A stretch of 64,000 nucleotides of DNA from Candidatus Omnitrophota bacterium (GCA_018817165.1 JAHITY010000088.1:2866-66865), one strand, 5' to 3'; counted from the first letter of the stretch, positions 27,258-58,238 are shown. A program made the numbers and translations. Notes: generated by a model not told the origin, from the sequence alone.

Positions 27258-28364
27258 TTAAAAATCTCTATATTCGCGGCGGATAAACAGACCACTTGCT
27301 ACAGGGTCCAAAAACAACTTCAAGAAATAGTTTACATCTTTTACGAATCTTCGCGGAACATAAACAATGTCTTCTGACTCAAGAACCAGATTATCGCTTA
27401 AATCAGCTAATTTTAAAGCCTTATTCAGATCCAATCTTTTAGGATCTGGATTCTGCAGCCCGCCTTTTACTAATATGATACTCGGAGTAACCGCGTCTTC
27501 CGTAAAGCCGCCGGCTAAACCAACTGCTTCTAAAATTGTCTTGCCTTTAGCTAAAGTATATACCCCCGGACTTCTGACCTGGCCAAGCACAATAACTCTA
27601 TTGCCGCCAAAAGTATTTACAGAAACAGACACCTGCGGGTATTTTATGAACTCACGTAAACCCTGAGTTAAAGTATTGCTAAATTCAGTGATTGTTTTAC
27701 CAGAAGCCTCAACTTCACCAACTAAGGCAAATGAAATCAAGCCATCAGGCCGAACTATCACTTGATCATCAAGATCGGGATTTTGCCAAACCTTGACAGA
27801 TAAAACATCACCATTTCCGATTCTATACTTAACTGCACTTTTTTGCTTTATTTCAGGAAGACTTACCGGAATATCAGGCTGATCATTTACCGCAGGCAAA
27901 ACACTATTTTCTTTATCCTTCTTAATATCAGAAATAGCCATTTCGAATTCTTTTTGAGCTTCATTAAACCTGCCCTGATTATACAAAATTAAGCCTCGTT
28001 TATAATGCTGATCATTTTCTTTTTCTGTAGCATTTAAGGCTTTTTTAAATTCCTGCTCTGCAAGCTTAAATTTTCCTTGATTGTAATAGATCAACCCTTT
28101 TTTATAATAATCCTGTTTTTCTGTTTTAGTTTTTTCAATTGATTTTTGAAACTCTTGCTCTGCTTCTTTATATTTTCCCGCTTTATAAAAATCTAAACCT
28201 TTCGCGTAATGATCATCATTGCTCGAAATATTTGAATCGGCATAGCTCAAATCGGATACTTTTAAAAAAAATAAACCGCAAATAGCTAAAAATATCGCTG
28301 AAATAAAAATATTTTTAAATATACTCTTTGCTGTTTTCTGAAATTTATTTTCTTTAATTCGCAT
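27258..28364 (-). CDS. Polysaccharide export protein (Wza/KpsD family, Poly_export+SLBB) with N-terminal TPR-like repeats
   Basis: An N-terminal transmembrane or signal segment, three KGL.YYxQGKFxEAEQEF repeats, then YRIGNGDVLSVKVWQNPDL...VRPDGLISFALVGEVEASGKT. Confidence 0.7.
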   Translation of the reverse strand: MRIKENKFQKTAKSIFKNIFISAIFLAICGLFFLKVSDLSYADSNISSNDDHYAKGLDFYKAGKYKEAEQEFQKSIEKTKTEKQDYYKKGLIYYNQGKFKLAEQEFKKALNATEKENDQHYKRGLILYNQGRFNEAQKEFEMAISDIKKDKENSVLPAVNDQPDIPVSLPEIKQKSAVKYRIGNGDVLSVKVWQNPDLDDQVIVRPDGLISFALVGEVEASGKTITEFSNTLTQGLREFIKYPQVSVSVNTFGGNRVIVLGQVRSPGVYTLAKGKTILEAVGLAGGFTEDAVTPSIILVKGGLQNPDPKRLDLNKALKLADLSDNLVLESEDIVYVPRRFVKDVNYFLKLFLDPVASGLFIRREYRDF

Positions 28365-31300: not shown

Positions 31301-31741
31301 CTTTAAGTCTTCATCTTTATTCATTAATAAAAGTTCTAATTGCTTTATCTTTTTGTTAAGCCCATCTGTCGGCTGAGGTTTCTTTTTTAATCTCGCATTA
31401 ACCTTTTCAAACTTATCTTCAACTTCTTTTTTTTCTTTTTTAATTCTTTTAATTTCTTGTTTCAATAATTCATTTTCTTCCGAAAGTTCAGTTGGATTAC
31501 TTAATGATTTATCTATTCCCGGACTTTTCTCAACAATATTATCTGCCGAACGCAAAGCCTGTCTTGCTTTTTCAAACTCAGCCTGAGCCTCCTTATATTT
31601 ACCCTGTTTAAACAATTCCTGAGCACGGATATAATGCTTATCATATTCCTGCGAATACGCTTCACTCAAGCTACAAAACAAAAGCCCAAAAATTAAAATT
31701 GAAACATTAAATATAACGTTTATTTTTTTAAAGGCATACAT
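28385..31741 (-). CDS. Giant (1118 aa) low-complexity coiled-coil protein with an N-terminal signal or transmembrane segment and one TPR-like unit
   Basis: K/E/L/N/Q-rich heptad-like sequence throughout. The N-terminus is MYAFKKINVIFNVSILIFGLLFCSLSEA. Confidence 0.55.
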   Translation of the reverse strand: MYAFKKINVIFNVSILIFGLLFCSLSEAYSQEYDKHYIRAQELFKQGKYKEAQAEFEKARQALRSADNIVEKSPGIDKSLSNPTELSEENELLKQEIKRIKKEKKEVEDKFEKVNARLKKKPQPTDGLNKKIKQLELLLMNKDEDLKQNQVLIEDIKVEKKSLSEELAAVKEELIDLYQKKDVIIKPAATETTFLGGLFGAKKDEEAGAAKPALSIREQLAQYELLKQEKNKLQEELKLVNEKTLAQNKQYELLIAEAKKAEEAVAAKANEQEKIVFENKLLEQIIMALEKQQEESVAKPINIAENSEQVKQQQMIDKKDKEINELNSQNAKILKEKEAILAEKELLEKNGKLMVKLEEQNKGIQAALDEKVQKTQLIESELSGLNKKNKDLIEENQVLKNDAKKLEEEKNFAAKEKDKILADYNLEIEKNSKVQAESKQAQETLKLKDEDIRKKEQQLEVIEKDIALLLKEEDAAKEKNKQLEIDKKKLEEENGVLAKKTLSAVQAEKKINELNGLLENLNKKNQDITSQFEQVQKDKKELEAQIIALNENFSLLENENKNLLKENETISLREKTDLNNSQTAYDKLNNELAKIKEQRADLEAKVLSLSADYKDITKANTALNDNNKKLETENKELKGQNEKLAKIENKVGLLEKDIVLKEKEAKGSIDQSNQLAKLNDELKNKLDELNNQLTVLELDKKASLKNFDVLETDIKRIAKERNELESANKDQQEQLLAKDRELTLLLKKNGDLEKRKNSNKESVAENDSLRKSNEKLIQDIQAIESELKNKNSAILTLQNESSTKQEKTKELTQSNAELNNQVTALQKQLSELGQKEKSITAKVDVLETDKQLLGKEKSSLEAKSKEQEKLLAKQEKELAALNQEIFNIKKNQNLQPNQLNENNALRLEFDSLKTKLKITEDELNQKNQDLAGLRDNLNNIKNKLVAADAKTVELSKAEKEFENKNNVLLSEMNRLKQNSPDLQSLNEKLKSLEVLLKEKEGVQTELQSEISASNLQRQEIMAQLSAAQAKITELENQTKGKSTSTQEVLAQMEELATQKQQVMEKYQKLFDQMKEQNVAIKEFEQKLKDVQNSLAKSEDEKVVMAEEIISLRGKIQGF

Positions 31742-31758: not shown

Positions 31759-33447
31759 TCAATTCCCCATTAATAGTTCTATTTCTTTCTTCAACCTATC
31801 AGCCTTGAGCTTATCTTCCGAATTGTTTGGCTGATTTTTGAATTGGTCAACCATGTTTTCTTGCAAAGTAATATTTAGCTGAGTTGAGCGGGTAAGGTCA
31901 TCCATTGTTATTCTTTGGCGCTCCTGCATATCAACCAGCTCCTGCTGTTTCCTCTTAAATTCTGCCTGCAAAATCGCCAGCTCATTTTTCAAACTTAGGA
32001 TATCTTGATTCTTATTAAAAATTTCTTCTTCCCTTCGAGCTAAAAGTTCGCTAGTTTGCAGCATTTGATTCTTTAAATTGGCATAAAGCATATTGGCGTC
32101 TTTAAATTCCTTATCTTGATAAAGACCACGTTCTTCCAGCGTTTTTTTCGCCATTGCTAATGCTGCCAATTCTTCATCTTTACGCCTTAAAGCTTCTTCC
32201 TTATACGAAAGCGAATCATTTAGCATTTTAATTCTATCTTTAAGCAAAACATATTGCCTGGCTTCAGTAGCCCCTTCCGGCAAAGACAAACTGGTGCCTT
32301 TTTGAATCGTTTTTTCTAATTCATTGATTCTTTGCTTTGAAGTTTCCAATTCAACTTCTTTACTCATCAATAACTCAGAGAACTTAACAACTTGCGCTTT
32401 AGCTGTATCATAAAGCACGTAAGCTCTATTTAAATCAGCATCCGTTTTCCCGGATTTTAATGGAATTTCACTTAGAACTGTTAATTCAGGAGATGGGCTC
32501 TGATCTTTTTTTAAGGCACTGATCATTTTTTCTTGTTCCGTTAGCTTTTGCTCAGCTTTTGCTAATTCCGCTTCCACTTGATCTCTTTCAGCTTCAATTT
32601 TCTTAATATTTCGCGCTTTTCTCTGTATATCTAATAATTCCTGCTCAAGACTCGCGATACGTTCACTTTGCTGATTAAGCTTTTCATTTATTTTAGTCCG
32701 CGCATTGGCATAACGCACAACTTCTTTGTTTAGCAAGCTTCGCTGCTCTTCTTTATCTTTCAGCTGATTGTGTAATTCAGCAATTTGTGATTTCAGCTTA
32801 TCACTAGGAGATTGATCTGAGAGTTTTACAGCCTGCTCTAATTTATTTTCCAGCTTTTTCTGATCGCTTTCCATCTTTCCAATCTTTTTTTCTAAAACTT
32901 TTTTTTCTTTATTGGAATCTGAATTTTTCTGAACAAGCTTTTTAATCTCCCCATCTTTTTCTTTAAGCAATTCGCTGTTTTTTTCTATTTTCGCTAAATA
33001 AGCTAAAATAGTCTTATCACTTTTAGCCGCGCTTAACTCTTGTTTGACCATTTTAAGATTTTCCAGGGTTTGAGTAAACTCTCGAGTAAGAGATGTTACC
33101 CTGCTATTTAAAGAGAGATTGGATTGTTGCAGAGTATTTCTTTCTTGCTCGATTTTTAAATAAGATTCATCCAGTGTTTTTAATCTTTTTTCAGTTACAT
33201 CATACTTTTCTTTTATATTTTTTATCTCTGCCAATCCCGCCAACTCTTTTTTAAGTAAAACAATAAGTTTCTCTTCTTCAAGTTTCTGCTGTAAAAGATC
33301 TTCCTTTTCCCGAGCTAATACATCGGATCTTGCCGCGAGTATTTCCGCTCTATTCTTTGTTTCTACAAATCTTAACGCGAAAAAAATAGTTCCACATGCG
33401 ATAATGATTAATAAAAAAATCGAAAATATTTTCAGAAACTTATCCAT
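31759..33447 (-). CDS. Membrane-anchored coiled-coil protein (562 aa)
   Basis: An N-terminal transmembrane segment followed by a long coiled coil. Confidence 0.5.
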   Translation of the reverse strand: MDKFLKIFSIFLLIIIACGTIFFALRFVETKNRAEILAARSDVLAREKEDLLQQKLEEEKLIVLLKKELAGLAEIKNIKEKYDVTEKRLKTLDESYLKIEQERNTLQQSNLSLNSRVTSLTREFTQTLENLKMVKQELSAAKSDKTILAYLAKIEKNSELLKEKDGEIKKLVQKNSDSNKEKKVLEKKIGKMESDQKKLENKLEQAVKLSDQSPSDKLKSQIAELHNQLKDKEEQRSLLNKEVVRYANARTKINEKLNQQSERIASLEQELLDIQRKARNIKKIEAERDQVEAELAKAEQKLTEQEKMISALKKDQSPSPELTVLSEIPLKSGKTDADLNRAYVLYDTAKAQVVKFSELLMSKEVELETSKQRINELEKTIQKGTSLSLPEGATEARQYVLLKDRIKMLNDSLSYKEEALRRKDEELAALAMAKKTLEERGLYQDKEFKDANMLYANLKNQMLQTSELLARREEEIFNKNQDILSLKNELAILQAEFKRKQQELVDMQERQRITMDDLTRSTQLNITLQENMVDQFKNQPNNSEDKLKADRLKKEIELLMGN

Positions 33448-33457: not shown

Positions 33458-34609
33458 TTATTTTAGGTTGCCGTCATTATAAACATCAAGAATATATACA
33501 GAAAAATTTTTACTCAAATCAATTTGCTTTGCCTGAAGCAATTTTTGCCCATGCGCGTCATACGTAACTTTAATAATCGGCCTGAGCGGCATTTTTTGAT
33601 TTTGACCAATAATTTCAGCAATTTCTTTAGTATTTAATTTAACCACACTCATTAAAGGATATATCCCGATCTCATCAATCAAAGTCTTGAGGAACTTGCT
33701 TTCAAATTTAGCTTTATCGCGCAAAAGCTCTTTTATTACCTTAAGATATCCTAGCTTTTTTCTATAAGGCCTTGAATGCATCATTGCTTCATAAACATCA
33801 GCCATTCCTATTAGTCTGGCATACTCACATATTTCTTTATCTTTAAGACCATAGGGATAGCCTGATCCGTCAATCCGTTCATGTCCCTGGTGAATAACAT
33901 CGAAAATTTCAAAATTCAAATCCTGCGCTATTTTTTTTAAAATATCCTTACCGATAATCGGATGCTTTTTCACTTCCAAATAATCATTATCGCTAAACCG
34001 CGCGGGACGACTAATCAGATTATCAAAATTCATAATACCAATATCATGAACCAAGGCTGCTAATCCAATTTGCTTAAGCCGCGTATTGTCATAATTTAAG
34101 GCCATTGCTAACCGTAAGCAAAGTATGCAGACATTTACTGAATTCTGATAAATATATCCTTTTTCGAAAGAATATTCCGCGAAAAACAATCTCATCAGCT
34201 GATTAGCATCTGCTGAAAGCAAAGCGATAAATTGATCCACAACATAATCGGCAACAATAAATGACCCGTTTTGAGCGTTATCCAGCGGATTCATTATTCC
34301 TTGAACAAAAGCAATTGCCTTGGCATAAGCAGCAATTGCCTGTTCGCTTTCAACACTGACTACATTAACATCACTCTTATAAATTGTATGATATTTTTCT
34401 TTCTCCGCGGCAAGCTGCGGCTGCTGTTCTATTTCCGTTTCTAAAAGATCATTCGCCGTTTCTTCAGGTAATATTTCAGGCTTTTTTTCTGGCATTTGCG
34501 AAGGGGATAAAGGCTGCTTAAAAGCAGACGGCTCATTTACTTGAGCCTTGGATTCTTTAATCTGCTTATTTTTTTTTGCCTTTTTTAAAATATCGGATAT
34601 TTTTAGCAT
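33458..34609 (-). CDS. HD-GYP domain c-di-GMP phosphodiesterase (stand-alone, no receiver)
   Basis: Carries HDIG and HERIDGSGYP. Confidence 0.75.
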   Translation of the reverse strand: MLKISDILKKAKKNKQIKESKAQVNEPSAFKQPLSPSQMPEKKPEILPEETANDLLETEIEQQPQLAAEKEKYHTIYKSDVNVVSVESEQAIAAYAKAIAFVQGIMNPLDNAQNGSFIVADYVVDQFIALLSADANQLMRLFFAEYSFEKGYIYQNSVNVCILCLRLAMALNYDNTRLKQIGLAALVHDIGIMNFDNLISRPARFSDNDYLEVKKHPIIGKDILKKIAQDLNFEIFDVIHQGHERIDGSGYPYGLKDKEICEYARLIGMADVYEAMMHSRPYRKKLGYLKVIKELLRDKAKFESKFLKTLIDEIGIYPLMSVVKLNTKEIAEIIGQNQKMPLRPIIKVTYDAHGQKLLQAKQIDLSKNFSVYILDVYNDGNLK

Positions 34610-34646: not shown

Positions 34647-35267
34647 TTATTTAGTTACAGGCATCTTTTCTTTACTGATAAATGTAAATGACTCTGACTC
34701 ACCAGGAGATTTCTGCTTACTTAAAACTCCCCGCATTTCAGTCATATCCTCATTCATTTCACCTCGCCAAAAGATCACTTGACCATCATCAGCACTTTGC
34801 ATGGTTTCCCAAATAATCATCCCATCGTCTTTGAGCGTTAAGGTATAATTAGTCGACATAAAACCATTTTGCTTAAATTGTTCAGCATAAAATTTATTAT
34901 CGCTAAATACAAGTGCTTCTTTCTGAATTTTTCCACCACCAGCAATAGGAAAAATTTCCGTATCCCAACTTGTATTATCTAATTTTAAGCGAACTTTTTC
35001 ACGCGACAGCTTAACATCTGATTTAATAGTAGCATCTTTCTCTTTATTTGCTTTAATAACTTGTTTTTCTTGAATCGGCAGTTTTACTTCTTTTTGCTCA
35101 ATAACTTTTTTTTCAGTAATTACTTCTACTTTTTCCTGTTTGACTTCTTTTTGCGTTTCTTTAACTTCAGGTGCTGCGGTCTTTTTCTTTCCCCATGCTT
35201 GCGCATTTTGCACGCTAAACATTACAAATACTGCAATCAATACCAAAAGCCCTACATTTTTTCTCAT
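34647..35267 (-). CDS. Secreted hypothetical protein
   Basis: A signal peptide MRKNVGLLVLIAVFVMFSVQNAQA and a K/E-rich linker. Confidence 0.45.
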   Translation of the reverse strand: MRKNVGLLVLIAVFVMFSVQNAQAWGKKKTAAPEVKETQKEVKQEKVEVITEKKVIEQKEVKLPIQEKQVIKANKEKDATIKSDVKLSREKVRLKLDNTSWDTEIFPIAGGGKIQKEALVFSDNKFYAEQFKQNGFMSTNYTLTLKDDGMIIWETMQSADDGQVIFWRGEMNEDMTEMRGVLSKQKSPGESESFTFISKEKMPVTK

Positions 35268-35290
35268 ACTTCCTCCTTTTTAAATAAAGT

Positions 35291-36265
35291 TTATTTAGAA
35301 CTAGATTTTCCTTCCCAAGTCTGCCATGTAAGAATATACTTTTTAACCCAATCCACGTCCTGATCTTCCTTCTTGGTTAACATTAAAAACTTCTGAAATC
35401 TATCTATCGCTTTTGCTCTATCCTCAAACTGCTCAGCATAAATAAGCCCTAAATTAAAATAAGCCTGCGGATCTTCCGGATTCAGTTCAATCGCCTTTTC
35501 AAACTCAGGAATTGCTCGGGTATATTCCTTTTTTTCGGAATAAAAAACCCCCAAGTTATAATGCATCAATGCTGTACGTTTTAACAAAATTTTATTTTCG
35601 CGAGCGATCTCCGCGTATTCTTTAGGCAAACGATTAATTTTATTTTCTAGCTTCTTATTTGTCGTAACCGATTTCTTATATTTACTCTTAACTTCTTTTA
35701 CTTGATTCCTTAAAACATCTGCCGTGGCTTCGGCTTTAGCGATTTGATCAGATGCCGAGTCGACTTCTTTTTGCATTTTCTTAAGATTATTTTCTGAGCG
35801 GGATATCTCTTTTTCCTGCTCTTTTATTTTTTTATTCAAATCATCAACAATGATATACCCGGCTTTTGATTTAGAAAGAGTCTTTCTCATTTCATCTCTT
35901 TCTGACTGAACTTGAAACAAATCCGCCTGTAAATTGTCTAATTTACTAACCAAATGATCATTAACTGATTGGAGTCTTTTGTTTGCGCTTATATTTGTTT
36001 CTTTTTCCAGTTCCCACTGCGCCCGTTCTTGTTCGACTAAACTTAATTGCTGTTTTGCCTGAGTTATTTCATTTTTATACTGCAATAAAATTTTCATCTG
36101 CGCAAGCAGATTTTCCCGGTCCTTAATAACAGCATCATACTCTTTTTTTAATTTACTAAAATCTTTATTGTCCAAAGATTCAACCTGAGCCTGCCCCAAA
36201 GCCATTGAAGGTAAAAACAACATCACGCAAAAAAACACAAGCTTAATTGATTTCATTTTATTCAT
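35291..36265 (-). CDS. Secreted coiled-coil protein with C-terminal TPR repeats (PilF/MshN-like candidate secretin partner), paralog 2
   Basis: A signal peptide, a coiled coil, then a C-terminal TPR block (HYNLGVFYSEKKEYTRAIPEFEKAIELNPEDPQAYFNLGLIY). Confidence 0.55.
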   Translation of the reverse strand: MNKMKSIKLVFFCVMLFLPSMALGQAQVESLDNKDFSKLKKEYDAVIKDRENLLAQMKILLQYKNEITQAKQQLSLVEQERAQWELEKETNISANKRLQSVNDHLVSKLDNLQADLFQVQSERDEMRKTLSKSKAGYIIVDDLNKKIKEQEKEISRSENNLKKMQKEVDSASDQIAKAEATADVLRNQVKEVKSKYKKSVTTNKKLENKINRLPKEYAEIARENKILLKRTALMHYNLGVFYSEKKEYTRAIPEFEKAIELNPEDPQAYFNLGLIYAEQFEDRAKAIDRFQKFLMLTKKEDQDVDWVKKYILTWQTWEGKSSSK

Positions 36266-38075
36266 CCTTTAAAGGTTTTATGGTTGGATAATATTCCTCA
36301 ATATTCTTATATTCAGGATATTCCTGATAAAGCTTTGGTTTTATTTCATAATTTTTTTCAAACTCAGTTAAATCAGATTCCGTAGTCATTGAATTATAGT
36401 CCTTATATCCTTTGCCTTGCTCAACTCCAAAATCTCTATTATTACCTGTATCGATTTTATCGCCGTCAATAATATGGGCAGTAACCATGATCAGCAGTTC
36501 ACTGCGGGTAGTCCCTTTGCTCCCGGATTTAAACAACATACCCAGAATTGGAATTTTGCCTAAAAACGGAACTTCTTGTGATGTATCTGTTTTTTCTTCC
36601 TTACGCAAACCACCAACAGCGACAGTTGCTCCATCTTTTATCATTACAGTTGTTTCAGCGGTTGAAGTATCGACAATCGGAATCCGATTGTTCTGCGCTG
36701 TCAATAATGTACCGATTACACTGCTTAAATCCGGCTTTATTTTTAAGGTAACATAACCTTCATCATTTATTGTCGGGGTAATATGCAACTGCAACCCCAC
36801 ATCTAAAAAAGTCACTTCTTCAGAAACAGTTGTGGTTGTCTGACCAGCAGTTGTGGTTGTCGTAATATAAGCCTGTCTTTCGCCGACATGAATACGCGCT
36901 TCCTGATTATTTGTCACTGCCAGCTTAGGATTTGACAAAATCTTAACTTCTCCCAATGTCTGTAAATATTTCAGCATTACATCATAATCATGATTGCCAA
37001 CTACTCCAATATGCATTTCGCTTGTCCCCACACTGGGAACACTTGACGCGTAATCAGAAGTCGTTCCGCTAAAAGGATATGATCCTATATTACCAGTATC
37101 AGTTAAAACCTCCTGCCGAGAACGCCAGGCCGCTGTGGTACTGTTTACAGAGGCCAAAGGGGTTGAGCCCAGATAAGTAGTATTACCATCTTTTTGCGAT
37201 AATTCAAACAGACCTTCCCACGCGACTCCTTGACTTAAAGCATCAGTCAGCTTTATTTGAATTATTGTAGACTCAATCAAAACTTCTCTTGTTTTCTGAT
37301 CAAGCTTAGCAATAATCGCCTGAATATCTTTCATTCTTTCCGGAAGGGTTTGTACAACCAGCTGATTTGTCCGTTCATCGGCTTTTATCGAGCCGACTTT
37401 TTTCATATCCAGCTGTGTTTTTAACTGCTTGGCAATATCCCCGGCATTCGCGTATTGCAAATTAAAAACCTGTACCGTACTCTTATGCTCAAGCAATCCT
37501 ATTGTTTCTTCCACTTCCGCTATTTTCTCTGGGGTATCCAGGATTAAAATAGTCCCGGAATCAGCCTCCACCAATACTTTGCCAATTGAACTCTTTATTG
37601 AATCAATTATTGTATATGCTTGCTCAGGAATAACATATTTTAAATGAAAAACTTTTACCTGGCGAATATCATCAAAACCTTTTCCATAACGCTGCGTATA
37701 TTCTTTTTCAGTCATTACATTGTATATTGAACCTATTTTTTCATAAGCTAAACTATTTGATCTTATAACAATCTCAAAAATATCTTCTACTGCCGCATTG
37801 TTTATCATCAAAGTAATCCGACCTGAGACATCTTTTGTCGGCACAATATTTAAATTCGCTTTTTGAGCAATATATTTAAGCGCGTCTTTAACTTCAATAT
37901 CACGCAAATCCAAAGAAATCAACTCTTTAGCTACCATGAGATTAGAAACAGAAGAACCATTCACTGTTGATAATGAAACATATTCACCATCAGCGAAGAC
38001 TGTTTCTACAGCACATAATATTGTAACTGCGAAACACCAAATAGTCAAAAATATAATAAAAATAAATTGCTTCAT
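36258..38075 (-). CDS. Secretin (GspD/PilQ/MshL family), paralog 2. The likely start is M14 of the track ORF.
   Basis: Secretin_N repeats and a secretin C-domain (LSNPKLAVTNNQEARIHVG, IPIVDTSTAETTVMIKDGATVAVGGL, VPFLGKIPILGMLF). Confidence 0.85.
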   Translation of the reverse strand: MKQFIFIIFLTIWCFAVTILCAVETVFADGEYVSLSTVNGSSVSNLMVAKELISLDLRDIEVKDALKYIAQKANLNIVPTKDVSGRITLMINNAAVEDIFEIVIRSNSLAYEKIGSIYNVMTEKEYTQRYGKGFDDIRQVKVFHLKYVIPEQAYTIIDSIKSSIGKVLVEADSGTILILDTPEKIAEVEETIGLLEHKSTVQVFNLQYANAGDIAKQLKTQLDMKKVGSIKADERTNQLVVQTLPERMKDIQAIIAKLDQKTREVLIESTIIQIKLTDALSQGVAWEGLFELSQKDGNTTYLGSTPLASVNSTTAAWRSRQEVLTDTGNIGSYPFSGTTSDYASSVPSVGTSEMHIGVVGNHDYDVMLKYLQTLGEVKILSNPKLAVTNNQEARIHVGERQAYITTTTTAGQTTTTVSEEVTFLDVGLQLHITPTINDEGYVTLKIKPDLSSVIGTLLTAQNNRIPIVDTSTAETTVMIKDGATVAVGGLRKEEKTDTSQEVPFLGKIPILGMLFKSGSKGTTRSELLIMVTAHIIDGDKIDTGNNRDFGVEQGKGYKDYNSMTTESDLTEFEKNYEIKPKLYQEYPEYKNIEEYYPTIKPLKDE

Positions 38076-38086
38076 TTGTATAATAA

Positions 38087-40300
38087 TTATCGCACATTTT
38101 CCTGCGTGCCCCAAATCAGCAAATATTCTTTTGCTTTCTGAGCATCCTTATCATTAGGTGCCAGAGCAAGATAGTGCTTAAAATGGGAAATCGCTTTTAA
38201 TTCATCGACTAAATAACGAGAATATATAATCCCCAGATTATAATGTGTGCTCGCATCCCGATCATTGAATTTTAAAGCTTTTCTAAACTCAGATACAGCT
38301 TGGGTGTATTCCTGACGTTGAGAATGAAAAACTCCTAAATTATAATGCAATGAAGAATTCTCTAAACGTAAATCACTTGTTTCTTTTTCTAACTTTGATA
38401 ATCTTTCCGGCATGGCTTTAAGCTGTAGCTCAAAATTTTTATTCTGATTATTCAAATCACTTATATTCTTTTTTAGCTCATCAACCGTGTCAGAATATTT
38501 AGCCAATAATCCGATCTGCTGCTCATCCTTCTTCTGCCATTCCCGTTCCTTTTTATAAAAATTCTGAACTTTTTTAGCTAAACTGTCTTTATCTTTTTCC
38601 AGCTTTACGTGTACTTCCTGGAGCGCCGCAAACTTGATTTTATTATCTTCCAGCTGATTTAAATAATTCTCCCTATCTTTATTCGAAAGATCGTTTTTCT
38701 TTTCCAGTTCACCGGCAAGACCGCGAAATTCTTTTAATTCCTCGCTAAGTTTATTTTTATTTTCCTCTAATTTCAGAAGGTAGCTTTGCTCTTTTTCTTG
38801 GATCATCTGCTCAGTAAGAGTTAGCTTTTTATCTTTATCTTCAACTTGTTTTTTATAATCCGCTACCAATGAAAGCAATTCAAGATTTTCATTAGCCATC
38901 TTATTATTCTTTGATTTTAAGCTGGTCAGTTCTTCGTAGGACTTATTTAAAATCTTATTAAGATTTGTAAACTCTGTTTTTAAAAAGTCAATCTCATCAT
39001 TAGCCACCTGAATGCTTCCAGAATCACTTGGAGTAAGTCCTTGCCCGGTACCGGTTTGTTTACCATCTAAACTAATAAGTTTAAGCAAAAGCTGTTTTTT
39101 CTCATTTACTAATTTATCATTTTGATTAATAAGATCTTCATTCCTTTTTTTAATATCCAAAACATTTTCTTCCAAACTCTTTTTATTTTCAGATATCAAC
39201 ATTTTATATTCTGCTCTTTGATGCAAAAGCTCCTCATCCTTTTGTTTGATCAAAGCTTTTTGACTGATTAGCTGCGCGTCTTTTTCCTTGGTCTGCTGAA
39301 TAAAAGATTCCATATCAGTTTCATACTGTTCTTTCTGCTGATTAAAATCTTTGCTGCCATCCTGAAGCTTGGCCAGCTCTTCTTTTAAAGCTTTTTCCCT
39401 TTGTATATATTTTTCAGTATAATAGCGTTCCATACCCTTTAATTCTTCTTGGGTAACTCCCAGCTGCTTTTCTTTTTCTGCCAGCTGTTTTCTGGTTTCA
39501 TCAAGCTTTTGCTGATAATCCTTACTATCTGCCTCTATTTGCTGATTGCGATTAACAATTGTCTCGCTTTCCTTTTTTGCCAACACTAATTCATCTTTTA
39601 AAGTTTTTTCTTTTTGCTGCATTGCCTCAACCTGTTTAATAGTTTCTTTGGTTAAGTTAGTCACTTGTTCATTAAAAGCTTTTTCTTTTTTATCCAGCTT
39701 GTCTTTAAGCGCTAAAATTTGCTCTTGCTGAGCTTGATGTTCTTTAGCATATTTTTGCTCTGATTCTTGGATTTTCCGATTCTCTTCTTTAAGTGATTCA
39801 ACCAGCTTACTTAATTGCGTAACTTGCTCTGTTTCCTTTTGAGATTTTTGCGAATAATATAACTCTTTCTTTTCAGAATCTTCCTTTAACCTATTATAAT
39901 TATCTTTAAGTTCCGCCTTATTTTCTTCCAAAGTGCTGATTGCCGCTTGGGCCTTAGTAAACAGCTGATCGACATTATTAAGCTGCTGCCTTAAAGAAGT
40001 GATTTCGCCTTCTTTAGCGGCTACAGCTTGTTCTTTTAGCGCCAGCTGTTCACTAAGAAAATCATGTTTTGACTTAACTTGCTCATACTGATTGCTCAGA
40101 TCTTCATAAGCCTGTTGTTTAGCTTTTAGATCTTTTGCTAAAACCCCCATGTCTTTAGCAATTTTCTCAACCACATTCGATACTTCCATTGAAGCATCCT
40201 GCGCTTGAGACACTGAGCCGATATTAAGACTCAAAGCAAAAATCAGTGCAAAGATAAGCCCCCTACTTCCCACGATTCCTCGCCAATGAAAATTTTTCAT
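38087..40300 (-). CDS. Secreted coiled-coil protein with C-terminal TPR repeats, paralog 1 (737 aa)
   Basis: A signal peptide, a long coiled coil, and a C-terminal TPR block homologous to that of 35291..36265. Confidence 0.55.
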   Translation of the reverse strand: MKNFHWRGIVGSRGLIFALIFALSLNIGSVSQAQDASMEVSNVVEKIAKDMGVLAKDLKAKQQAYEDLSNQYEQVKSKHDFLSEQLALKEQAVAAKEGEITSLRQQLNNVDQLFTKAQAAISTLEENKAELKDNYNRLKEDSEKKELYYSQKSQKETEQVTQLSKLVESLKEENRKIQESEQKYAKEHQAQQEQILALKDKLDKKEKAFNEQVTNLTKETIKQVEAMQQKEKTLKDELVLAKKESETIVNRNQQIEADSKDYQQKLDETRKQLAEKEKQLGVTQEELKGMERYYTEKYIQREKALKEELAKLQDGSKDFNQQKEQYETDMESFIQQTKEKDAQLISQKALIKQKDEELLHQRAEYKMLISENKKSLEENVLDIKKRNEDLINQNDKLVNEKKQLLLKLISLDGKQTGTGQGLTPSDSGSIQVANDEIDFLKTEFTNLNKILNKSYEELTSLKSKNNKMANENLELLSLVADYKKQVEDKDKKLTLTEQMIQEKEQSYLLKLEENKNKLSEELKEFRGLAGELEKKNDLSNKDRENYLNQLEDNKIKFAALQEVHVKLEKDKDSLAKKVQNFYKKEREWQKKDEQQIGLLAKYSDTVDELKKNISDLNNQNKNFELQLKAMPERLSKLEKETSDLRLENSSLHYNLGVFHSQRQEYTQAVSEFRKALKFNDRDASTHYNLGIIYSRYLVDELKAISHFKHYLALAPNDKDAQKAKEYLLIWGTQENVR

Positions 40301-40302
40301 TT

Positions 40303-42114
40303 TTAATCCTCTTTTTGGTCTTTAATCAAAGTTCTTTGGTATGGTTTAAAACTTTTAATTTCCATTCCGCCAAAATCACTTGCCGGTGGCGGCGGTAAAT
40401 AGCTTTCCTGCTCTTCCTTAATTCTATCCACCTGTTCATAATCCTGAAACGATTTTATCCCGGGAGCCCCGATAACATCACCTTGCGCGGCAACCAATGC
40501 CTCACCGCTGATAATCGTGGGCGTAATCATAATTAATAATTCTGTAACATTTTTAACATCGCTTGATTTCTGAAATAAAAGGCCGATAATCGGGATGCTG
40601 CTGATAAACGGAACTCTTTGCTTTATCTGTACTTTCTCTTCCCGGCGCAAACCGCCGATAACAAGCGTTGCCCCATCTTTAACCAATGCCGTTGTTTCCG
40701 CTAATGAAGTGTCTACTATTGGGATTTGATTGCCTGTAGGGGTAACTAATGTTTCTAATACGCTGCTGACTTCCGTCTTTAATTTTAAGTCAATAAAGCC
40801 ATCTTCATTAATCCGCGGAACAACATCCATTTGAATACCAATATCAATAAATTGCACATCTTCCGATATTGTACTAGTTGATTGTCCGGAAGTAGTAGTT
40901 GTGGTTACATATGCCTCACGCGCTCCAACGTGAATTCTTGCTTCTTGATTATTGGTTACCGCGATCTTAGGATTAGAAAGCAGCTTAGACGACGTAACTG
41001 TCTGGATATAAGTTAATACCATGTCCAGATCATTGCCGCCGATAATTCCGAGATGCAGACCGTCCAATCCAACCATTGCGCTGCTGCTGTTATACACTGA
41101 TGTTGTCCCGCTAAACGGATATGAACCTACATTTCCCACATCTTCATAAACTTGTCTGCGCGAACGCCAATCAGCAGTTGCTGAGCCAACCGAAGTAAAC
41201 GGAGCTGATCCAAGATAAGTCAAGCTATTCGAATCAGAAGCCGCGTCAAATAAGCCTTCCCATTCAACCCCTTTATCTGTCCCATCTGAAATTTTAGATT
41301 TTACAATCTTAATATCAATTAAAACTTCTTTTGTTTTTTGATCCAAAGCCTTGATTAATTCTTCTATTTCTTCCATTCTTTTGGGAAAAGTCTGGACAAT
41401 AACCTGATTAAGCCGTTCATCAGCTTTAATTGATCCGACTTTTTTACCGGAAAGCCTGTGACTTAAAGTTTCTTCTACACTCTTCGCTTTAGCATAATTC
41501 AAGGTAAATATCTTTACAATATTCTTTTTTTCAAATTGGCTGAGCAGTTCCTCCATCCGCGCAAGATTCGATGGAGAATCCATGCATAGAATATTCCCTG
41601 ATTCCTGATCAACCAATATTCTGCCTACATCACTTTTAACTGCTTCCAATAAATTAAAAGCCTGTTCCGGAATCGCGTAATCAAGATGAAAAACTTTTAC
41701 CTTGCGGATATCGAAAAAATTCTTACCATAAAGCACTGCGTATTCCTGCTGCGTCATAACATTATAAATATCGCCGACCTTATCATAGGCCAAACCATTT
41801 GAACGAAGCATAATATCAAAGACATCCTGCACGGGAACTGACTCAACGACCAGCGTTATCCGCCCGGCAACAGATTTTGTGGTTACGATATTAAGCCCGC
41901 TTTTCAATGAAAAATATTTCAAAGCATCATTGATATCGATTTTTCTCAAATCCAAGGAAATAACACCATCAACACCTTTACTCAAAACCGCGATCTTAGG
42001 CTGCGGCGGGGCAATCAAAGGCGTTGAAGCCCCGGCATCTTGCGCCCAGCCGGATTTAAAATTAATCAGGATAAAAACTGCAATTAAACTAACCGCAATC
42101 TGTTTTTTACTCAT
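40303..42114 (-). CDS. Secretin (GspD/PilQ/MshL family), paralog 1
   Basis: The same domain set as 36258..38075, at about 55-60% identity by eye. Confidence 0.85.
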   Translation of the reverse strand: MSKKQIAVSLIAVFILINFKSGWAQDAGASTPLIAPPQPKIAVLSKGVDGVISLDLRKIDINDALKYFSLKSGLNIVTTKSVAGRITLVVESVPVQDVFDIMLRSNGLAYDKVGDIYNVMTQQEYAVLYGKNFFDIRKVKVFHLDYAIPEQAFNLLEAVKSDVGRILVDQESGNILCMDSPSNLARMEELLSQFEKKNIVKIFTLNYAKAKSVEETLSHRLSGKKVGSIKADERLNQVIVQTFPKRMEEIEELIKALDQKTKEVLIDIKIVKSKISDGTDKGVEWEGLFDAASDSNSLTYLGSAPFTSVGSATADWRSRRQVYEDVGNVGSYPFSGTTSVYNSSSAMVGLDGLHLGIIGGNDLDMVLTYIQTVTSSKLLSNPKIAVTNNQEARIHVGAREAYVTTTTTSGQSTSTISEDVQFIDIGIQMDVVPRINEDGFIDLKLKTEVSSVLETLVTPTGNQIPIVDTSLAETTALVKDGATLVIGGLRREEKVQIKQRVPFISSIPIIGLLFQKSSDVKNVTELLIMITPTIISGEALVAAQGDVIGAPGIKSFQDYEQVDRIKEEQESYLPPPPASDFGGMEIKSFKPYQRTLIKDQKED

Positions 42115-42779
42115 CTAATTTCAACCTCTTCACCTTTATACCGCAAAACAACTCGATCTTTTTGAATATCATAAACTTTAATCTCATCGATCATATACCC
42201 CTTCCGGACAAAGTAGGTTTTATCAATTTCCGGATTTTCAATAATCGCGTCCGGATCATCGCCCCAAGAAATACCGACTAATTTCAGATTCTTTGTCAAT
42301 TCAGAAAGTTTCGAAACTTTATTAATGTCTTCTTCTTTGAAATCAACTTCTTTTCTTTTTGCGTATCCCATTTGAAAAAAATCTCTGACTTCCGCTTTAT
42401 CCAAATAAAACTGCTTTTCTTTTAACAGCGAGCTGATTTCAATTGATTCGCTGACTACATTTGCTTGGGCATCCCGTCCAATAAGCAATGCCGCCTTATC
42501 TGTGCCTTTAATCTCAATCCGGATAAATATTCCTAAAGCAATTATCGCCACCCCAATTACGCATTGCAAAAAAACATTAATCAGTTTTAAATCCTGAAAA
42601 ACACTTTTACCGGCAACCGGCTTAAAACTAAAACTTTCTTTAAAAAAAGCAAATCTCGCCCGCAATGATCCCAGAGAAAGATACTTATTCCCCATTCTAA
42701 TCGGAGAAGGTCTAGAGACATTATCACTTTTCCCCTCAATGATTTCTAATAAACGTTTTTCCGGAGTTTTTTCTGCCAT
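42111..42779 (-). CDS. Membrane protein, possibly secretin-associated (GspB/PilP-like role)
   Basis: A single transmembrane segment (VIGVAIIALGIFI). It sits between the ExeA-like ATPase and the secretin, with a 4-nt overlap. Confidence 0.35.
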   Translation of the reverse strand: MAEKTPEKRLLEIIEGKSDNVSRPSPIRMGNKYLSLGSLRARFAFFKESFSFKPVAGKSVFQDLKLINVFLQCVIGVAIIALGIFIRIEIKGTDKAALLIGRDAQANVVSESIEISSLLKEKQFYLDKAEVRDFFQMGYAKRKEVDFKEEDINKVSKLSELTKNLKLVGISWGDDPDAIIENPEIDKTYFVRKGYMIDEIKVYDIQKDRVVLRYKGEEVEIR

Positions 42780-42793
42780 ATTTTAATCCAAAC

Positions 42794-43654
42794 TCAGGCA
42801 ATTACACTAGGTTGTCTGACCCAATGCAATCCTTGCTGAATTTCTTCTTCTACGATTTCCTTGATTAAATCCTCATCGATCACAAATTTATTTCTCATTA
42901 CCAAGCGCTTTAATGCTTTATGACAAAGCATATTCATTCTCCGCGGATACCCCTTAGTGTTTTGATAAATCGCTCTGATCGCTGTATCTAAAAACAAATG
43001 CATATTCGATTTATACCCAGCCTGGCGAATCCGATATTCGATCATTTTCCGCGCTTCATATTCATCCAAAGGATTTAAAGTGTACTTTAAACTTATCCGG
43101 TCAATAAAATTAGGGATATTTATCAGTTTAGAGTGTAGCTCCATTTGGCCAAGTAAGACTAACTGCAATAATTTATATTCATTTGTTTCATAATTAAGCA
43201 AAACCCGTAAACACTCAAGGGTTAATTCATTCAACTTTTGCGCCTCATCAATGATCAGCACAATAGTCTTACCTTCTTCAACTCCTTTTTGAAATAAAAA
43301 CTTCTCGAGAGCTTCTTTTAAATTTAGAATCCTTGGACCGTCTTTAGCCACTTCAATATCAAAATTTCGAGCAAGTGATGTAAGGAATATCTCTTCATCA
43401 TTATAAACCGGATCAAGCATCATATGACAGATAAATCCTTCTTGTGATTTTATCAACTGATACAGTTTACGACTAAGCGTTGTCTTGCCAGTACCCACAT
43501 CCCCTAAAATAACTCCCAATCCCCGTTTCAACCGCAGCTCAATCATTAAATTAGTTAAAGCCATATCATGCTCGCGGGATTCATAAAAAAACATCGGATC
43601 AGGGCTTGTAGAAAAAGGCTCTTTTTCAAATCCTAAAATCTTATAATAGCTCAT
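42794..43654 (-). CDS. ExeA/GspA/MshM-like AAA ATPase (AAA_22)
   Basis: Walker A GDVGTGKTT, Walker B LIIDEAQ and typical ExeA length and order. Confidence 0.8.
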   Translation of the reverse strand: MSYYKILGFEKEPFSTSPDPMFFYESREHDMALTNLMIELRLKRGLGVILGDVGTGKTTLSRKLYQLIKSQEGFICHMMLDPVYNDEEIFLTSLARNFDIEVAKDGPRILNLKEALEKFLFQKGVEEGKTIVLIIDEAQKLNELTLECLRVLLNYETNEYKLLQLVLLGQMELHSKLINIPNFIDRISLKYTLNPLDEYEARKMIEYRIRQAGYKSNMHLFLDTAIRAIYQNTKGYPRRMNMLCHKALKRLVMRNKFVIDEDLIKEIVEEEIQQGLHWVRQPSVIA

Positions 43655-43802
43655 AGAATCTCCTTAAAAAATAAAAAGCCATGCCTTATGCGCAAACACA
43701 TAAAACACAGCTTTAAATTTTTTATTAAAAGATTAAACAATCTCTTAAAATCCATTTTAAAAATCCTCTTCCATGATAATTCAGTACTAAAAAATTACAA
43801 AC

Positions 43803-44033
43803 CTAAGCATTATCCAACATTTTAGCGATAATCTTCAAAGGATATCCTTTACCCTTTAATTCATCGATTTTATTCAAGTTATTTTCTACTTCAACAGCTC
43901 GATAAAAACGCTTATTGCCAAAACCTCTGATTCTAATAGCATTAAGCAATCCAAAATTTGTATAGTGATTCAATGTCTGGTAAGATATATTATACTTTCT
44001 TACCACATCCATAGCAGTTATATTTTCTTCCAT
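43803..44033 (-). CDS. Small MerR-family HTH protein. The start is probably M44 of the track ORF.
   Basis: An HTH MDVVRKYNISYQTLNHYTNFGLL. Confidence 0.45.
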   Translation of the reverse strand: MEENITAMDVVRKYNISYQTLNHYTNFGLLNAIRIRGFGNKRFYRAVEVENNLNKIDELKGKGYPLKIIAKMLDNA

Positions 44034-44250
44034 TTTGACCTCGTAATTTGTAAAAACAGCAAATCCATTTTCATACAAACACACCCATCCTGGGAAAGGC
44101 TGGAATATTTTTTGCAAAAATATGAATAAAAAACACGCATTTAAACATTTTGATAATAGCATATATGGTAACTATTGTCAAGTGATATAGCCCACAATAA
44201 ACCTACTGATTTTAAATACAAAAATATCGATTTTTAAAAGCTCCAAAACT

Positions 44251-58203: not shown

Positions 58204-58238
58204 CTTCCCCCATTTAATCCAAAACTAAAAATTTTAAA

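Follow-up and report, generated by a model that had tools for sequence, protein, structure and literature searches.

The described systems closest to the locus reported here are the classical T2SS (with GspD, GspC, GspA/GspB, i.e., ExeA/ExeB, and GspS/AspS), the Vibrio MSHA locus (mshI-J-K-L-M-N-E-G, with MshL, MshM, and MshN), and the type IVa pilus secretin PilQ together with the TPR proteins PilF/PilW/Tgl. MshN is not known to be a long coiled-coil protein. In Pseudomonas aeruginosa, XcpQ, XqhA, and HxcQ are alternative or additional secretins for one T2SS. CpoB/YbgF (Tol-Pal), an exported protein that works in the periplasm next to an envelope-spanning machine, has a coiled coil at its N-terminus and a TPR domain at its C-terminus. 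'Loner' gspD genes are allowed in the TXSScan/MacSyFinder models (PMC6668835).

The locus compared here with these systems lies in a window (the whole stretch of DNA analyzed, 64 kb in length) from a Candidatus Omnitrophota MAG, and no paper describing it was found in the literature library searched. With the classical T2SS, it shares a secretin carrying N0 and N domains, a bitopic protein that matches the GspC HR domain crystallized with GspD N0-N1 (PDB 3oss), and a gene for an ExeA/GspA-type P-loop ATPase next to the secretin gene; relatives have the module linked to GspF/G/J/K/L/M. However, the ATPase here is soluble, without the TM segment and the peptidoglycan-binding domain of ExeA, and the GspC-like protein lacks the PDZ domain of classical GspC. 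Instead of a lipoprotein pilotin, there is one exported coiled-coil protein with a two-repeat TPR domain per secretin, and secretin and partner are duplicated, with the module detached from inner-membrane genes.

As in MSHA, a secretin, a soluble ExeA-like ATPase, and a TPR protein form a triad here, with c-di-GMP-related genes nearby. In relatives, the platform protein is a PilM+PilN fusion (~480-510 aa), with a PilO-like protein after it, which we take to be comparable to MshI/MshJ. On the other hand, the gene order differs, both secretins miss the cutoff of the MshL model TIGR02519 (152 and 177 bits versus 250), and the pseudopilin genes linked to the module match T2SSG/J/K models. As in the type IVa pilus, a TPR protein is genetically tied to the secretin, and PilQ structures are the best secretin-domain matches, whereas AMIN domains are absent here and the partner, unlike the lipoproteins PilF/PilW/Tgl, is no lipoprotein, has two TPR repeats versus about six, and carries 200 to >1500 residues of coiled coil. 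The presence of more than one secretin paralogue in a genome, with secretin genes away from the machine, recalls XcpQ/XqhA/HxcQ and loner gspD, but the paralogues here are adjacent, co-transcribed, each with a dedicated partner, and conserved together across the clade. CpoB/YbgF is an architectural analogue only: its coiled coil is far shorter than the one here, it goes with Tol-Pal and not with a secretin, and no ybgF family model was among the curated NCBIfam matches at E<=0.01.

Gene content of the operon

The six genes recognized by the initial annotation are all intact ORFs on the minus strand, and the coordinates it gave for them stand. The unit that it delimited (34647-43654) is part of something larger, as gene spacing and conserved synteny indicate a tight 16.4-kb operon running from 43654 down to 27258. 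Two secretin/partner pairs are arranged in the order Sec1, P1, Sec2, P2, with tight spacing and overlaps. The genes upstream of them encode a P-loop ATPase resembling GspA/MshM and a membrane protein whose HR domain is of the GspC type, in agreement with the ExeA-like AAA ATPase and small membrane protein annotated at the outset.

The operon is preceded by a gene for a small MerR-family HTH protein (43803..44162, minus strand; PF13411 MerR_1, E 1.9e-8). Its ORF encodes 119 aa, while orthologues have 73-88 aa and match only residues ~41-119; translation probably starts at the ATG at 44033, for a product of ~76 aa. Most related loci have a copy of this gene ahead of the module, and some have another one ahead of secretin 2. 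The best promoter-like site lies upstream of both the MerR-type gene and the operon (44153..44181, minus strand): TTGACA, a 17-nt spacer, and TATTAT, with a TG, 11/12 matches in all, being a consensus match only.

The ATPase (286 aa; 42794..43654, minus strand) matches AAA_22 (E 6.5e-18) and has the Walker A motif GDVGTGKTT and a DEAQ motif, as expected for the cytoplasmic P-loop ATPase domain of GspA/ExeA. No TM or hydrophobic segment and no peptidoglycan-binding or further domain was found in its 286 residues, and in that respect it presumably resembles MshM. It scores 182.3 bits against the PEP-CTERM-associated ATPase model TIGR03015, whose cutoff is 324.5. The protein is 52-98% identical in 30 related loci, in which a secretin always lies downstream of it, and its dN/dS is 0.014-0.026.

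The bitopic inner-membrane protein (222 aa; 42111..42779, minus strand) carries the conserved motif PEKxLLxLIE in its N-terminal part, followed by a single hydrophobic segment (~66-88) and, at the C-terminal end, the HR domain (~150-220). The chain ends right after this domain, at residue 222, and no PDZ match was found. The window copy scores 22.4 bits against PF11356 T2SSC, below the cutoff of 27, and matches GspC NCBIfam models at E 2e-4. PF11356 is matched by 22/26 orthologues (best E 1.1e-9), a Lentisphaerae homologue (L038) scores 27.4 bits against the same cutoff, and the family profile matches the GspC HR domain in PDB 3oss_C (E 2.7e-4). These matches identify it as a GspC-like protein, whose HR domain is of the type known to bind secretin N0.

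Downstream of the pairs, the exported protein p206 (34647..35267, minus strand) consists of a K/E-rich disordered linker, one helix, and a C-terminal eight-stranded beta domain, which is conserved (WETMQ...FWRGE) and modeled by AF2 with pLDDT ~95 over residues 99-203. It has no Pfam match and no PDB structure match at E<=1e-3, the weak matches being lipocalin/LolA-like; the family is uncharacterised, with 798 representative clusters matching at E<=1e-3, and p206 follows partner 2 in related loci. The next gene encodes a 383-aa HD-GYP domain protein (33458..34609, minus strand; PF13487 HD_5, E 9.4e-21) with the motifs HDIG and DGSGYP. It is probably a c-di-GMP phosphodiesterase, and its gene is conserved in the cluster, as judged from synteny. 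CC562 (31759..33447, minus strand) is a coiled-coil protein that is N-terminally anchored, with a hydrophobic N-terminus and only coiled-coil-type matches, and is likewise conserved in the cluster. CC1118 (28385..31741, minus strand) is exported and has one N-terminal TPR-like hairpin, the coiled coil being ~1000 aa long. Large internal indels make it hypervariable (1118 aa versus 876 aa in the L001 orthologue, at 52-56% identity), whereas the neighbouring genes are 83-98% identical to those of L001. The last gene encodes an OPX/Wza-like polysaccharide-export protein (27258..28364, minus strand; PF02563 Poly_export, E 2.8e-23; SLBB; TPR_2) with three N-terminal TPR repeats, and its position is conserved in related loci.

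In the 64-kb window, no genes for pilins, GspE/PilB/PilT, or GspF/PilC were found by Pfam scans, which covered 58 of the 64 ORFs listed with a length of 100 aa or more, all long ones on the minus strand among them. A prepilin leader motif is absent in any reading frame, and none of GspE, GspF, GspG and the minor pseudopilins, GspK, GspL, and GspM is encoded within the window. The earlier statement that the window lacks pilin, PilB/PilT, and platform genes is thus borne out by these scans and the leader search.

The duplicated secretins and their partners

Both secretins consist of a signal peptide, the N0/STN and N domains, the secretin domain, and a tail. Copy 1 has 603 aa (40303..42114, minus strand), and copy 2 has 605 aa (36258..38075, minus strand) counted from the ATG at 38075, with an upstream TTG at 38114 that is also open. 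PF00263 Secretin is matched end to end by both (E 8e-43 and 1.6e-47; 146 and 162 bits; model positions 2/3-168/169), which places them in the secretin superfamily, and two stretches of Secretin_N and the STN/N0 domain are also matched in each. No equivalog cutoff is reached: GspD TIGR02517 gives 220 and 238 bits (cutoff 351) and PilQ TIGR02515 gives 233 and 260 bits (cutoff 284), so that the PilQ models score slightly above the GspD models for both. The best PDB match for the secretin domain is Myxococcus PilQ (3jc8, E 1.7e-34), and AMIN domains have no Pfam match in either protein. The existence of two intact secretins stands as first described; their identity had been estimated by eye at 55-60%, and the alignment gives 53% over 509 residues, gap-free, with divergence running throughout the barrel.

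The two copies differ in their tails, which contain IKSFQDY and IKSFKPY in secretin 1 (~70 aa), and GKGYKDY and KLYQEYPE, ending with IKPLKDE, in secretin 2. Among secretins with a coiled-coil/TPR neighbour, 27/38 short tails have the motif [KR]-x-[FY]-x-x-Y, which occurs 1.11 times per tail versus 0.06 in shuffles, the sequences compared being related and not independent. Conservation of this motif may have another reason than docking of a TPR domain. Secretins without such a neighbour have a TonB_C-like C-terminal domain instead.

Each secretin gene is followed, as had been annotated, by a gene for a secreted coiled-coil protein with C-terminal TPR repeats. The N-termini of both partners contain signal-like segments, the remainder is of coiled-coil composition, and the TPR matches are C-terminal (residues 651-715 in partner 1 and 231-308 in partner 2). 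Partner 1 (737 aa; 38087..40300, minus strand) has a signal peptide, a coiled coil of ~600 aa, and a TPR domain made of two repeats and a cap; its gene starts 2 nt past the secretin 1 stop. Partner 2 (324 aa; 35291..36265, minus strand) has a signal peptide, two ~100-residue helices, and again a TPR domain of two repeats and a cap; the 5' end of its gene shares 8 nt with the 3' end of the secretin 2 gene. The coiled coil of partner 1 is hypervariable (orthologues of 376-1628 aa), the length of partner 2 is conserved (308-362 aa), and the TPR domain of the partners is strictly conserved. In several lineages, the partner N-terminus resembles an uncleaved membrane anchor, which would fit a periplasmic tether.

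That the partners contain real TPR folds, and that these are homologous to each other, was proposed from the outset and agrees with the models and alignments. Several TPR Pfam models are above cutoff in partner 2, and TPR_11 is passed by partner 1 (30.2 versus 26.8). The AF2 model, made for partner 2, has a pLDDT of 85 overall and 95-98 in the TPR domain, whose best PDB match by Foldseek is the consensus two-repeat TPR 1na3 (TM 0.85, rmsd 1.8 A, 87 columns, 32% identity). Partner 1 is linked to it by the last 145 residues of the two proteins, which are 34% identical (E 2e-26).

Secretin and partner tell a common evolutionary story. The doubled module is kept in ~17 species-level genomes (L001-L008, L010, L011, L013, L015-L018, L020, and L021) and recurs in independently assembled MAGs from many studies, and L014 and L019 apparently have one pair only. 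In NJ trees, two broad groups of secretins correspond to the two copies, with a few lineages unresolved, and the partner TPR domains separate by copy, those of partner 2 being one clade. These trees show, at the level of sequence, that secretin and partner were duplicated as one unit, long ago. The tandem duplication originally recognized is therefore real and includes the pair, yet it is an ancient paralogy across many Omnitrophota lineages and not a recent event. Purifying selection acts on both secretins and both partners (dN/dS 0.05-0.11, close to the values of GAPDH and PGI), with 0.046-0.094 for secretin 1, 0.066-0.070 for secretin 2, and 0.064-0.085 for partner 1. Conservation and dN/dS support the view that both copies are functional. 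A check for pseudogenes found both secretin ORFs intact, with full-length domain matches and low dN/dS.

Linkage to T2SS genes in related genomes

In related single-copy genomes, the module of ATPase, GspC-like protein, and secretin adjoins genes for GspF/G/J/K, a GspL-like protein, and GspM, and the window genes may therefore be read as the detached, duplicated outer half of a T2SS/MSHA-like machine. In L032, GspF, GspG, N_methyl, GspK, the PilM+PilN fusion, and PilO/GspM lie directly upstream of the ATPase, GspC-like, and secretin genes. The closest single-copy outgroup (L022), which has a partner and p206, encodes a pseudopilin, GspK, and PilM+PilN 3.5-7.5 kb upstream, and in L031 a gene for a GspE-like ATPase comes after the secretin gene.

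Two further loci bear on the role of the partner. Downstream of T2SSG, T2SSJ, T2SSK, PilMN, and T2SSM_b, L049 encodes a coiled-coil/TPR protein of 1242 aa as well as an HD-GYP protein; here the coiled-coil/TPR gene stands behind GspM, and no secretin gene lies closer to it than 10 kb. In the complete genome L048, partner 2, p206, ATPase2, and HD-GYP occur together with no secretin nearby. From these gene orders, the partner may serve the T2SS as a whole and not the secretin specifically.

A proposed machine and its alternatives

The best explanation, to which we give slightly better than an even chance, is that the region encodes the outer-membrane/periplasmic half of an Omnitrophota-type T2SS/MSHA-like machine; that this machine belongs to the type IV filament superfamily is part of the same explanation and is held with the same cautious preference. 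The GspC-like protein would use its HR domain to contact N0 of the secretins, each of which is translationally coupled to its own exported coiled-coil/TPR protein. Made together from one operon, the secretins would form two different outer-membrane channels, with the inner-membrane platform and pseudopilus presumably encoded elsewhere in the genome. The TPR domain of each partner may dock on the copy-specific C-terminal tail of its cognate secretin through the motif [KR]-x-[FY]-x-x-Y, and its coiled coil may oligomerise and tether or scaffold the channel in the periplasm, although a fixed tether spanning the periplasm is difficult to square with the size range of partner 1 (376-1628 aa). The partner would thereby replace the lipoprotein pilotin/S-domain pair of the classical T2SS, and the TonB_C-like domain fused to the secretin in sister lineages. 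Control by c-di-GMP is suggested by the co-transcribed HD-GYP protein.

Several other explanations were weighed. Both secretins might co-assemble into one hetero-oligomeric channel with both partners attached, as could be expected from their shared tight operon (Sec1, P1, Sec2, P2), the single GspC-like gene and, in this lineage, the single ATPase serving both, and the joint retention of both copies in ~17 lineages. This is improbable given 53% identity with divergence throughout the barrel, a separate tail and partner signature for each secretin, and the apparent retention of one pair only in L014 and L019; to our knowledge, known secretins are all homo-oligomers. A somewhat smaller probability is given to the coiled-coil/TPR proteins, perhaps with CC562 and CC1118, being cargo or surface fibres exported via or anchored on the secretin for host or prey attachment. 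The length plasticity of partner 1 and of CC1118, whose indels separate near-identical genomes, is what exposed proteins would show, all have N-terminal export signals, and host-attached or predatory lifestyles of Omnitrophota have been inferred in published work. However, translational coupling to the secretin and the strict TPR conservation suggest a stoichiometric partner, and the anchor-like N-terminus in several lineages, the low dN/dS (0.06-0.11), and the fixed length of partner 2 also speak against cargo.

The initial annotation leaned toward a type IV or MSHA-type pilus, with the secretins as PilQ-type channels and the TPR proteins as PilF/PilW/Tgl-like pilotins. PilQ does provide the best NCBIfam and PDB matches, the partners weakly match PilW and Tgl models via their TPR repeats, and the platform protein in related loci matches PilM and PilN models. 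This leaning did not hold up, since the scores are below the PilQ cutoff without AMIN domains, and the genes linked to the module are T2SS hallmarks (GspC HR, GspK, T2SSG, T2SSJ, and T2SSM_b), so that the HR domain and the adjacent GspF/G/J/K/L/M in relatives point to a T2SS-like system; we regard it as no more probable than the export of cargo. Its second half, a PilF-like secretin pilot, was rejected because the partners and their orthologues have no lipobox as seen by eye and the partners have only two TPR repeats plus a cap; their scores are also far below the family cutoffs (PilF/PilW TIGR02521, 32.7 versus 154; Tgl NF033762, 28.2 versus 225). Less probable again is an operon for exopolysaccharide export akin to XrtA/PEP-CTERM loci, in which the secretins would have been taken over to export polymer: TIGR03015 is the best curated match of the ATPase, the last gene encodes an OPX/Wza-like protein, and there is an HD-GYP protein, but the ATPase score of 182 is far from 324.5, no exosortase, glycosyltransferase, Wzx/Wzy, or chain-length regulator is encoded in the operon, and relatives link the module directly to T2SS genes. 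A recent duplication, an assembly artefact, or one copy as a decaying pseudogene, for which nothing speaks beyond the tandem arrangement itself, is refuted by intact ORFs with full-length domains, 53% identity, independent MAGs, dN/dS of 0.05-0.09 for both, and the copy groups.

Under the preferred reading, a T2SS/MSHA-like machine, the exported coiled-coil protein with a small TPR domain would be a type of accessory not described before for secretins. A broader reading, which we consider doubtful, takes the whole 16-kb operon as an Omnitrophota-specific, c-di-GMP-controlled envelope apparatus, whose secretins are not just T2SS exits but anchor or extrude very long coiled-coil fibres of rapidly changing length. 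The gene content to be built into it comprises the ATPase, the GspC-like protein, the two pairs, the small beta-barrel protein, the HD-GYP protein, the two long coiled-coil proteins, and the OPX-like protein. If it were true, a scaffold in the periplasm or on the surface could be made of these fibres, for instance one attaching these nanobacteria to host or prey cells.

Organization of the Secretin Operon and Its Surroundings

The window is AT-rich (G+C ~36%), and all of its long ORFs are located on the minus strand. From 43654 to 27258, 11-12 minus-strand genes follow each other in an unbroken row, with gaps of at most 37 nt and two overlaps, one of 4 nt between the genes for the GspC-like protein and secretin 1, and one of 8 nt between secretin 2 and partner 2. 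In the order of transcription, the products are a P-loop ATPase (42794-43654, 286 aa), a small GspC-like membrane protein (42111-42779, 222 aa), secretin 1 (40303-42114, 603 aa), coiled-coil/TPR partner 1 (38087-40300, 737 aa), secretin 2 (36258-38075, 605 aa), coiled-coil/TPR partner 2 (35291-36265, 324 aa), an exported protein lacking a Pfam match (p206; 34647-35267, 206 aa), an HD-GYP protein (33458-34609, 383 aa), a membrane-anchored coiled-coil protein (562 aa), an exported coiled-coil protein (CC1118; 28385-31741, 1118 aa), and a TPR + Poly_export/SLBB (OPX/Wza-like) protein (27258-28364, 368 aa). The initial annotation described the first six of these genes; all six exist at the coordinates assigned to them, but they form only the first half of a longer operon. 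The OPX/Wza-like protein encoded at its end, which has three TPR repeats at its N-terminus, ahead of the Poly_export and SLBB domains, and lacks an obvious lipobox, is an unusual neighbour for secretins.

A small gene for a MerR-type HTH protein lies directly upstream of the operon, as does the best promoter-like site in the region. The interval that separates the MerR-type gene from the start of the ATPase contains a long, imperfect hairpin and, 3′ of it, a T-run (43675-43714), which could together represent an attenuator or a terminator. The Rfam search returned two tRNAs only, with no riboswitch before the operon and no match at this hairpin.

The p206 protein, which shares 100% identity with hypothetical protein KJ915_08315 from a Ca. 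Omnitrophica MAG, has an eight-stranded beta domain that is modelled with confidence and in which the motifs WETMQ and FWRGE are invariant. No family in Pfam matches it, and none of its PDB neighbours is convincing. With 798 representative clusters at E<=1e-3, it belongs to a sizeable, uncharacterised family that is tied to the cluster. A role as a second GspC was considered and rejected, as profile-profile comparison with the GspC-like family gave a probability of 0.9%. A counterpart is found at L048:10691-11197 (L-numbers denote related loci in other genomes or contigs that were compared with the window).

Several other features of the window lie outside the operon. Two tandem response-regulator/HD-GYP proteins are encoded beside a 7TM histidine kinase at 57151-61622, and together with the HD-GYP gene of the operon they make up a marked cluster of c-di-GMP phosphodiesterase genes. 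A defence/mobile-element patch (2388-9380) contains type I R-M HsdS and HsdM, an ORF6N/Rha-like regulator, RadC, and an AbiEii toxin with a 197-aa ORF upstream, while two neighbouring GalT/HIT-like paralogues (DUF4921/DUF4931 type) occur at 45886-47921, one of them starting right where the other stops.

Secretins and Their Coiled-Coil/TPR Partners

Both secretins cover the whole PF00263 model and possess N0/STN and N domains according to Pfam. They share 53% identity over 509 ungapped residues, and neither copy is a pseudogene. Neither reaches the equivalog cutoffs for GspD, PilQ, or MshL, and an exact-sequence look-up with secretin 1 returned no record. An origin from filamentous phages was rejected in view of the much weaker match to pIV (7ofh, E 5e-15) than to PilQ/GspD (E 1e-34), an ATPase of the AAA_22 rather than the Zot type, and the absence of phage context.

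Each secretin domain is followed by a tail of ~60-75 residues, which is variable outside short [KR]-x-[FY]-x-x-[YF] motifs. These appear as IKSFQDY and IKSFKPY in copy 1 and as GKGYKDY and KLYQEYPE in copy 2, whose C-terminal end is IKPLKDE; the short tails of single-copy secretins end in MRSYE or VRGYE. The motif was detected in 27 of the 38 partner-bearing secretins, at 1.11 per tail versus 0.06 per shuffled tail, and these figures reflect conservation rather than independent recurrence because the tails share kinship.

The partners are exported proteins that combine a coiled coil with a C-terminal TPR domain. Their last 145 residues are 34% identical (E 2e-26); elsewhere, E, K, Q, and L account for about half of the residues and proline for less than 1%, a coiled-coil composition, and matches are confined to SMC/Rad50-type coiled-coil segments. 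The AlphaFold2 model of partner 2 (29 aligned sequences, mean pLDDT 85) consists of a signal segment, a pair of helices each ~100 residues long, and five short ones at pLDDT 95-98. Foldseek related this last domain to consensus TPR structures (1na3, TM 0.85, rmsd 1.8 A, 32% identity), so that the TPR fold proposed initially is indeed present in the partner 2 model. An identity with the PilF/PilW/Tgl pilotins was rejected, since the partners lack a lipobox, contain only two TPR repeats plus a cap, and score far under the family cutoffs. By eye, the N-termini of most partners look like cleavable signal peptides, and those of the L013, L015, L018, L019, L021, and L022 partners resemble uncleaved membrane anchors.

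The last 130 residues of partner 2 proved an effective query for homologues; with the full 737-aa partner 1 as the query, low-complexity word matches dominated and only 3 hits were obtained. Each secretin copy has its own type of partner, and secretin and partner have co-diverged. Among orthologues, the length of partner 2 is steady (308-362 aa), whereas partner 1 can measure anything between 376 and 1628 aa and is too variable to be a simple ruler across the periplasm.

In sister lineages devoid of a coiled-coil/TPR gene (L026-L032 and L037), the secretins carry ~90 extra C-terminal residues, with the pattern GEVKLxF...PFPxFP in L026-L029, L032, and L037, and the extension in L037:4055-6160 (residues 614-697) matches TonB_C at the Pfam cutoff. 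The coiled-coil/TPR partner and the fused TonB_C-like domain alternate across lineages, as if both served a single function. We know of no previously described secretin-TonB_C fusion.

Age and Conservation of the Duplicated Pair

A scan of one genome per species identified 47 related loci, almost all in Candidatus Omnitrophota MAGs, the closest being L001 (94% identity). A few carry a Planctomycetes, Deltaproteobacteria, or Patescibacteria label but have the synteny of the Omnitrophota loci. When the window proteins were mapped on these loci, the doubled arrangement was present in L001-L008, L010, L011, L013, L015-L018, L020, and L021. The conserved order is ATPase, GspC-like protein, secretin 1, long partner, an optional MerR gene, secretin 2, short partner, p206, an optional second ATPase, HD-GYP protein, coiled-coil protein(s), and OPX-like protein.

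The second MerR gene and the second ATPase paralogue are kept only in deeper-branching lineages and have both been lost in the lineage of the window, which indicates that the original duplication was wider than the secretin and its partner. The second ATPase, also of the AAA_22 type, lies 3′ of p206 and is 30-34% identical to the first (L010:13241-14116, L011:5976-6821, L013:6697-7512, L016:13259-14101, L017:5458-6333, and L048:11211-12035). The second small MerR gene is located 5′ of secretin 2 in L010, L011, L016, and L017, that is, in most deeper-branching lineages with the second ATPase.

In the neighbour-joining tree of secretins, two broad copy groups are each represented by many genomes, with the single-copy L022 secretin just outside and the L014, L015, L019, and L021 secretins lacking a clear placement. 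In the TPR-domain tree, the partner-2 domains group in a single clade, marked by the signature DVDWVKKYILTWQTWEGK, to which the partner-1 domains do not belong. Taken together, the two trees indicate that secretin and partner were duplicated together, once, and early in a large Omnitrophota clade. The duplicated pair recognized in the initial annotation is a solid and conserved observation. Compared with L001 and L002, dN/dS was 0.046-0.094 for secretin 1, 0.066-0.070 for secretin 2, and 0.064-0.107 for the partners, with GAPDH and PGI at 0.06-0.07 for comparison; the value for the MerR gene was an artefact and was excluded.

Relation to Type II Secretion and Biological Meaning

The 222-aa GspC-like protein by itself shows weak matches to GspC and GspB models and to the two solved GspC HR domains. 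At the family level, however, 22 of 26 orthologues match PF11356 (T2SSC; best E 1.1e-9), a Lentisphaerae homologue reaches the Pfam cutoff, and the family profile retrieves 3oss chain C (E 2.7e-4), the GspC HR domain in a crystal structure with GspD N0-N1. On these profile matches, the GspC assignment is solid for the family. In published TFF models, GspC is a hallmark of T2SS versus type IV pili, and gspD may be a 'loner' gene (PMC6668835). The reported absence of pilin, PilB/PilT, and platform genes from the window holds in Pfam scans of 58 of the 64 listed ORFs of at least 100 aa, in which no pilin, GspE/PilB/PilT, or GspF/PilC was found; prepilin leader motifs are missing from every reading frame of the window.

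The decisive evidence for the type of machine is comparative, as the module or the partner is located beside T2SS genes in four related loci. In the single-copy locus L032, GspF, LacI, GspG, two more pseudopilin-like genes, GspK, a PilM+PilN fusion (GspL-like), and PilO/GspM directly precede the ATPase, GspC-like protein, and secretin. L022, the nearest single-copy relative of the doubled clade, has the coiled-coil/TPR partner and p206, with a pseudopilin, GspK, and a PilM+PilN fusion 3.5-7.5 kb upstream on the same strand. In the single-copy L031, the secretin is followed by a GspE-type ATPase, and the metagenome contig L049 contains T2SSG, T2SSJ, T2SSK, PilM/PilN, and T2SSM_b, after which come genes for a 1242-aa coiled-coil/TPR protein and for an HD-GYP protein. 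Together with the GspC assignment, this linkage leads us to read the window genes as encoding the outer half of a machine of T2SS-like type; its inner-membrane half would be encoded elsewhere in the genome. There is also a resemblance to the MSHA locus (mshI-J-K-L-M-N) in three respects, namely the solubility of the ATPase, the fusion of PilM with PilN, and the presence of a TPR protein next to the secretin, and an honest label would be a T2SS/MSHA-like type IV filament system. Outside Omnitrophota, the ATPase, GspC-like protein, secretin, and coiled-coil/TPR protein occur as a stand-alone four-gene unit in a Lentisphaerae MAG (L038:7850-21379), with a Laminin_G-rich protein of >1800 aa, a possible cargo, encoded ~3 kb downstream.

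With regard to mechanism, we infer that the TPR head of each partner would bind the tail of its cognate secretin, and that the coiled coil would oligomerise and tether or scaffold the channel in the periplasm. The HR domain of the GspC-like protein may connect N0 of both secretins with the inner-membrane platform. By analogy with ExeA/ExeB, the target of the ATPase may be the cytoplasmic N-terminus of the GspC-like protein. Some observations fit less well. In L048, a complete 1.82-Mb genome, a short coiled-coil/TPR protein, p206, the second ATPase, HD-GYP, and a 1124-aa protein are clustered with no secretin nearby, and in L049 no secretin is found within 10 kb; the partner may thus be a component of the whole T2SS and not only of the secretin. 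Exposed fibres or cargo are another possible identity for some of the coiled-coil proteins. CC1118 and its L001 orthologue (L001:16341-18971; 1118 versus 876 aa) are 52-56% identical while their neighbours reach 83-98%, and they differ by large internal indels with both termini conserved. A tandem-repeat search at the DNA level found no arrays accounting for the length changes of the coiled coils.

Full-text literature searches on Omnitrophota/Omnitrophica secretins, type II secretion, and pili, and on secretins with coiled coils, TPR, and pilotins, retrieved no account of the locus. A published T2SS-like locus upstream of Omnitrophota giant genes (gspD/E/F, rcpC, and PPIase) is a different one. 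The building blocks (secretin, GspC HR domain, ExeA-type ATPase, and TPR) are known; what is new is the accessory architecture, in which each secretin is provided with an exported protein that joins a long coiled coil to a minimal TPR head, the alternation of this accessory with a fused TonB_C-like domain, and the conserved, co-transcribed duplication of the secretin-partner pair.

To our knowledge, the targeting, assembly, and envelope retention of secretins are known only in a few proteobacterial models (lipoprotein pilotins, ExeAB, FimV, and TsaP). The locus points to another solution in a large uncultured phylum, namely a dedicated exported coiled-coil/minimal-TPR protein per secretin. The two diverged, co-expressed, and conserved pairs offer a natural test of the specificity of secretin-accessory recognition and of whether two channels can serve one T2SS. 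Omnitrophota have been inferred to attach to other cells or to prey on them, so their secretion machinery probably plays a central part in their biology.
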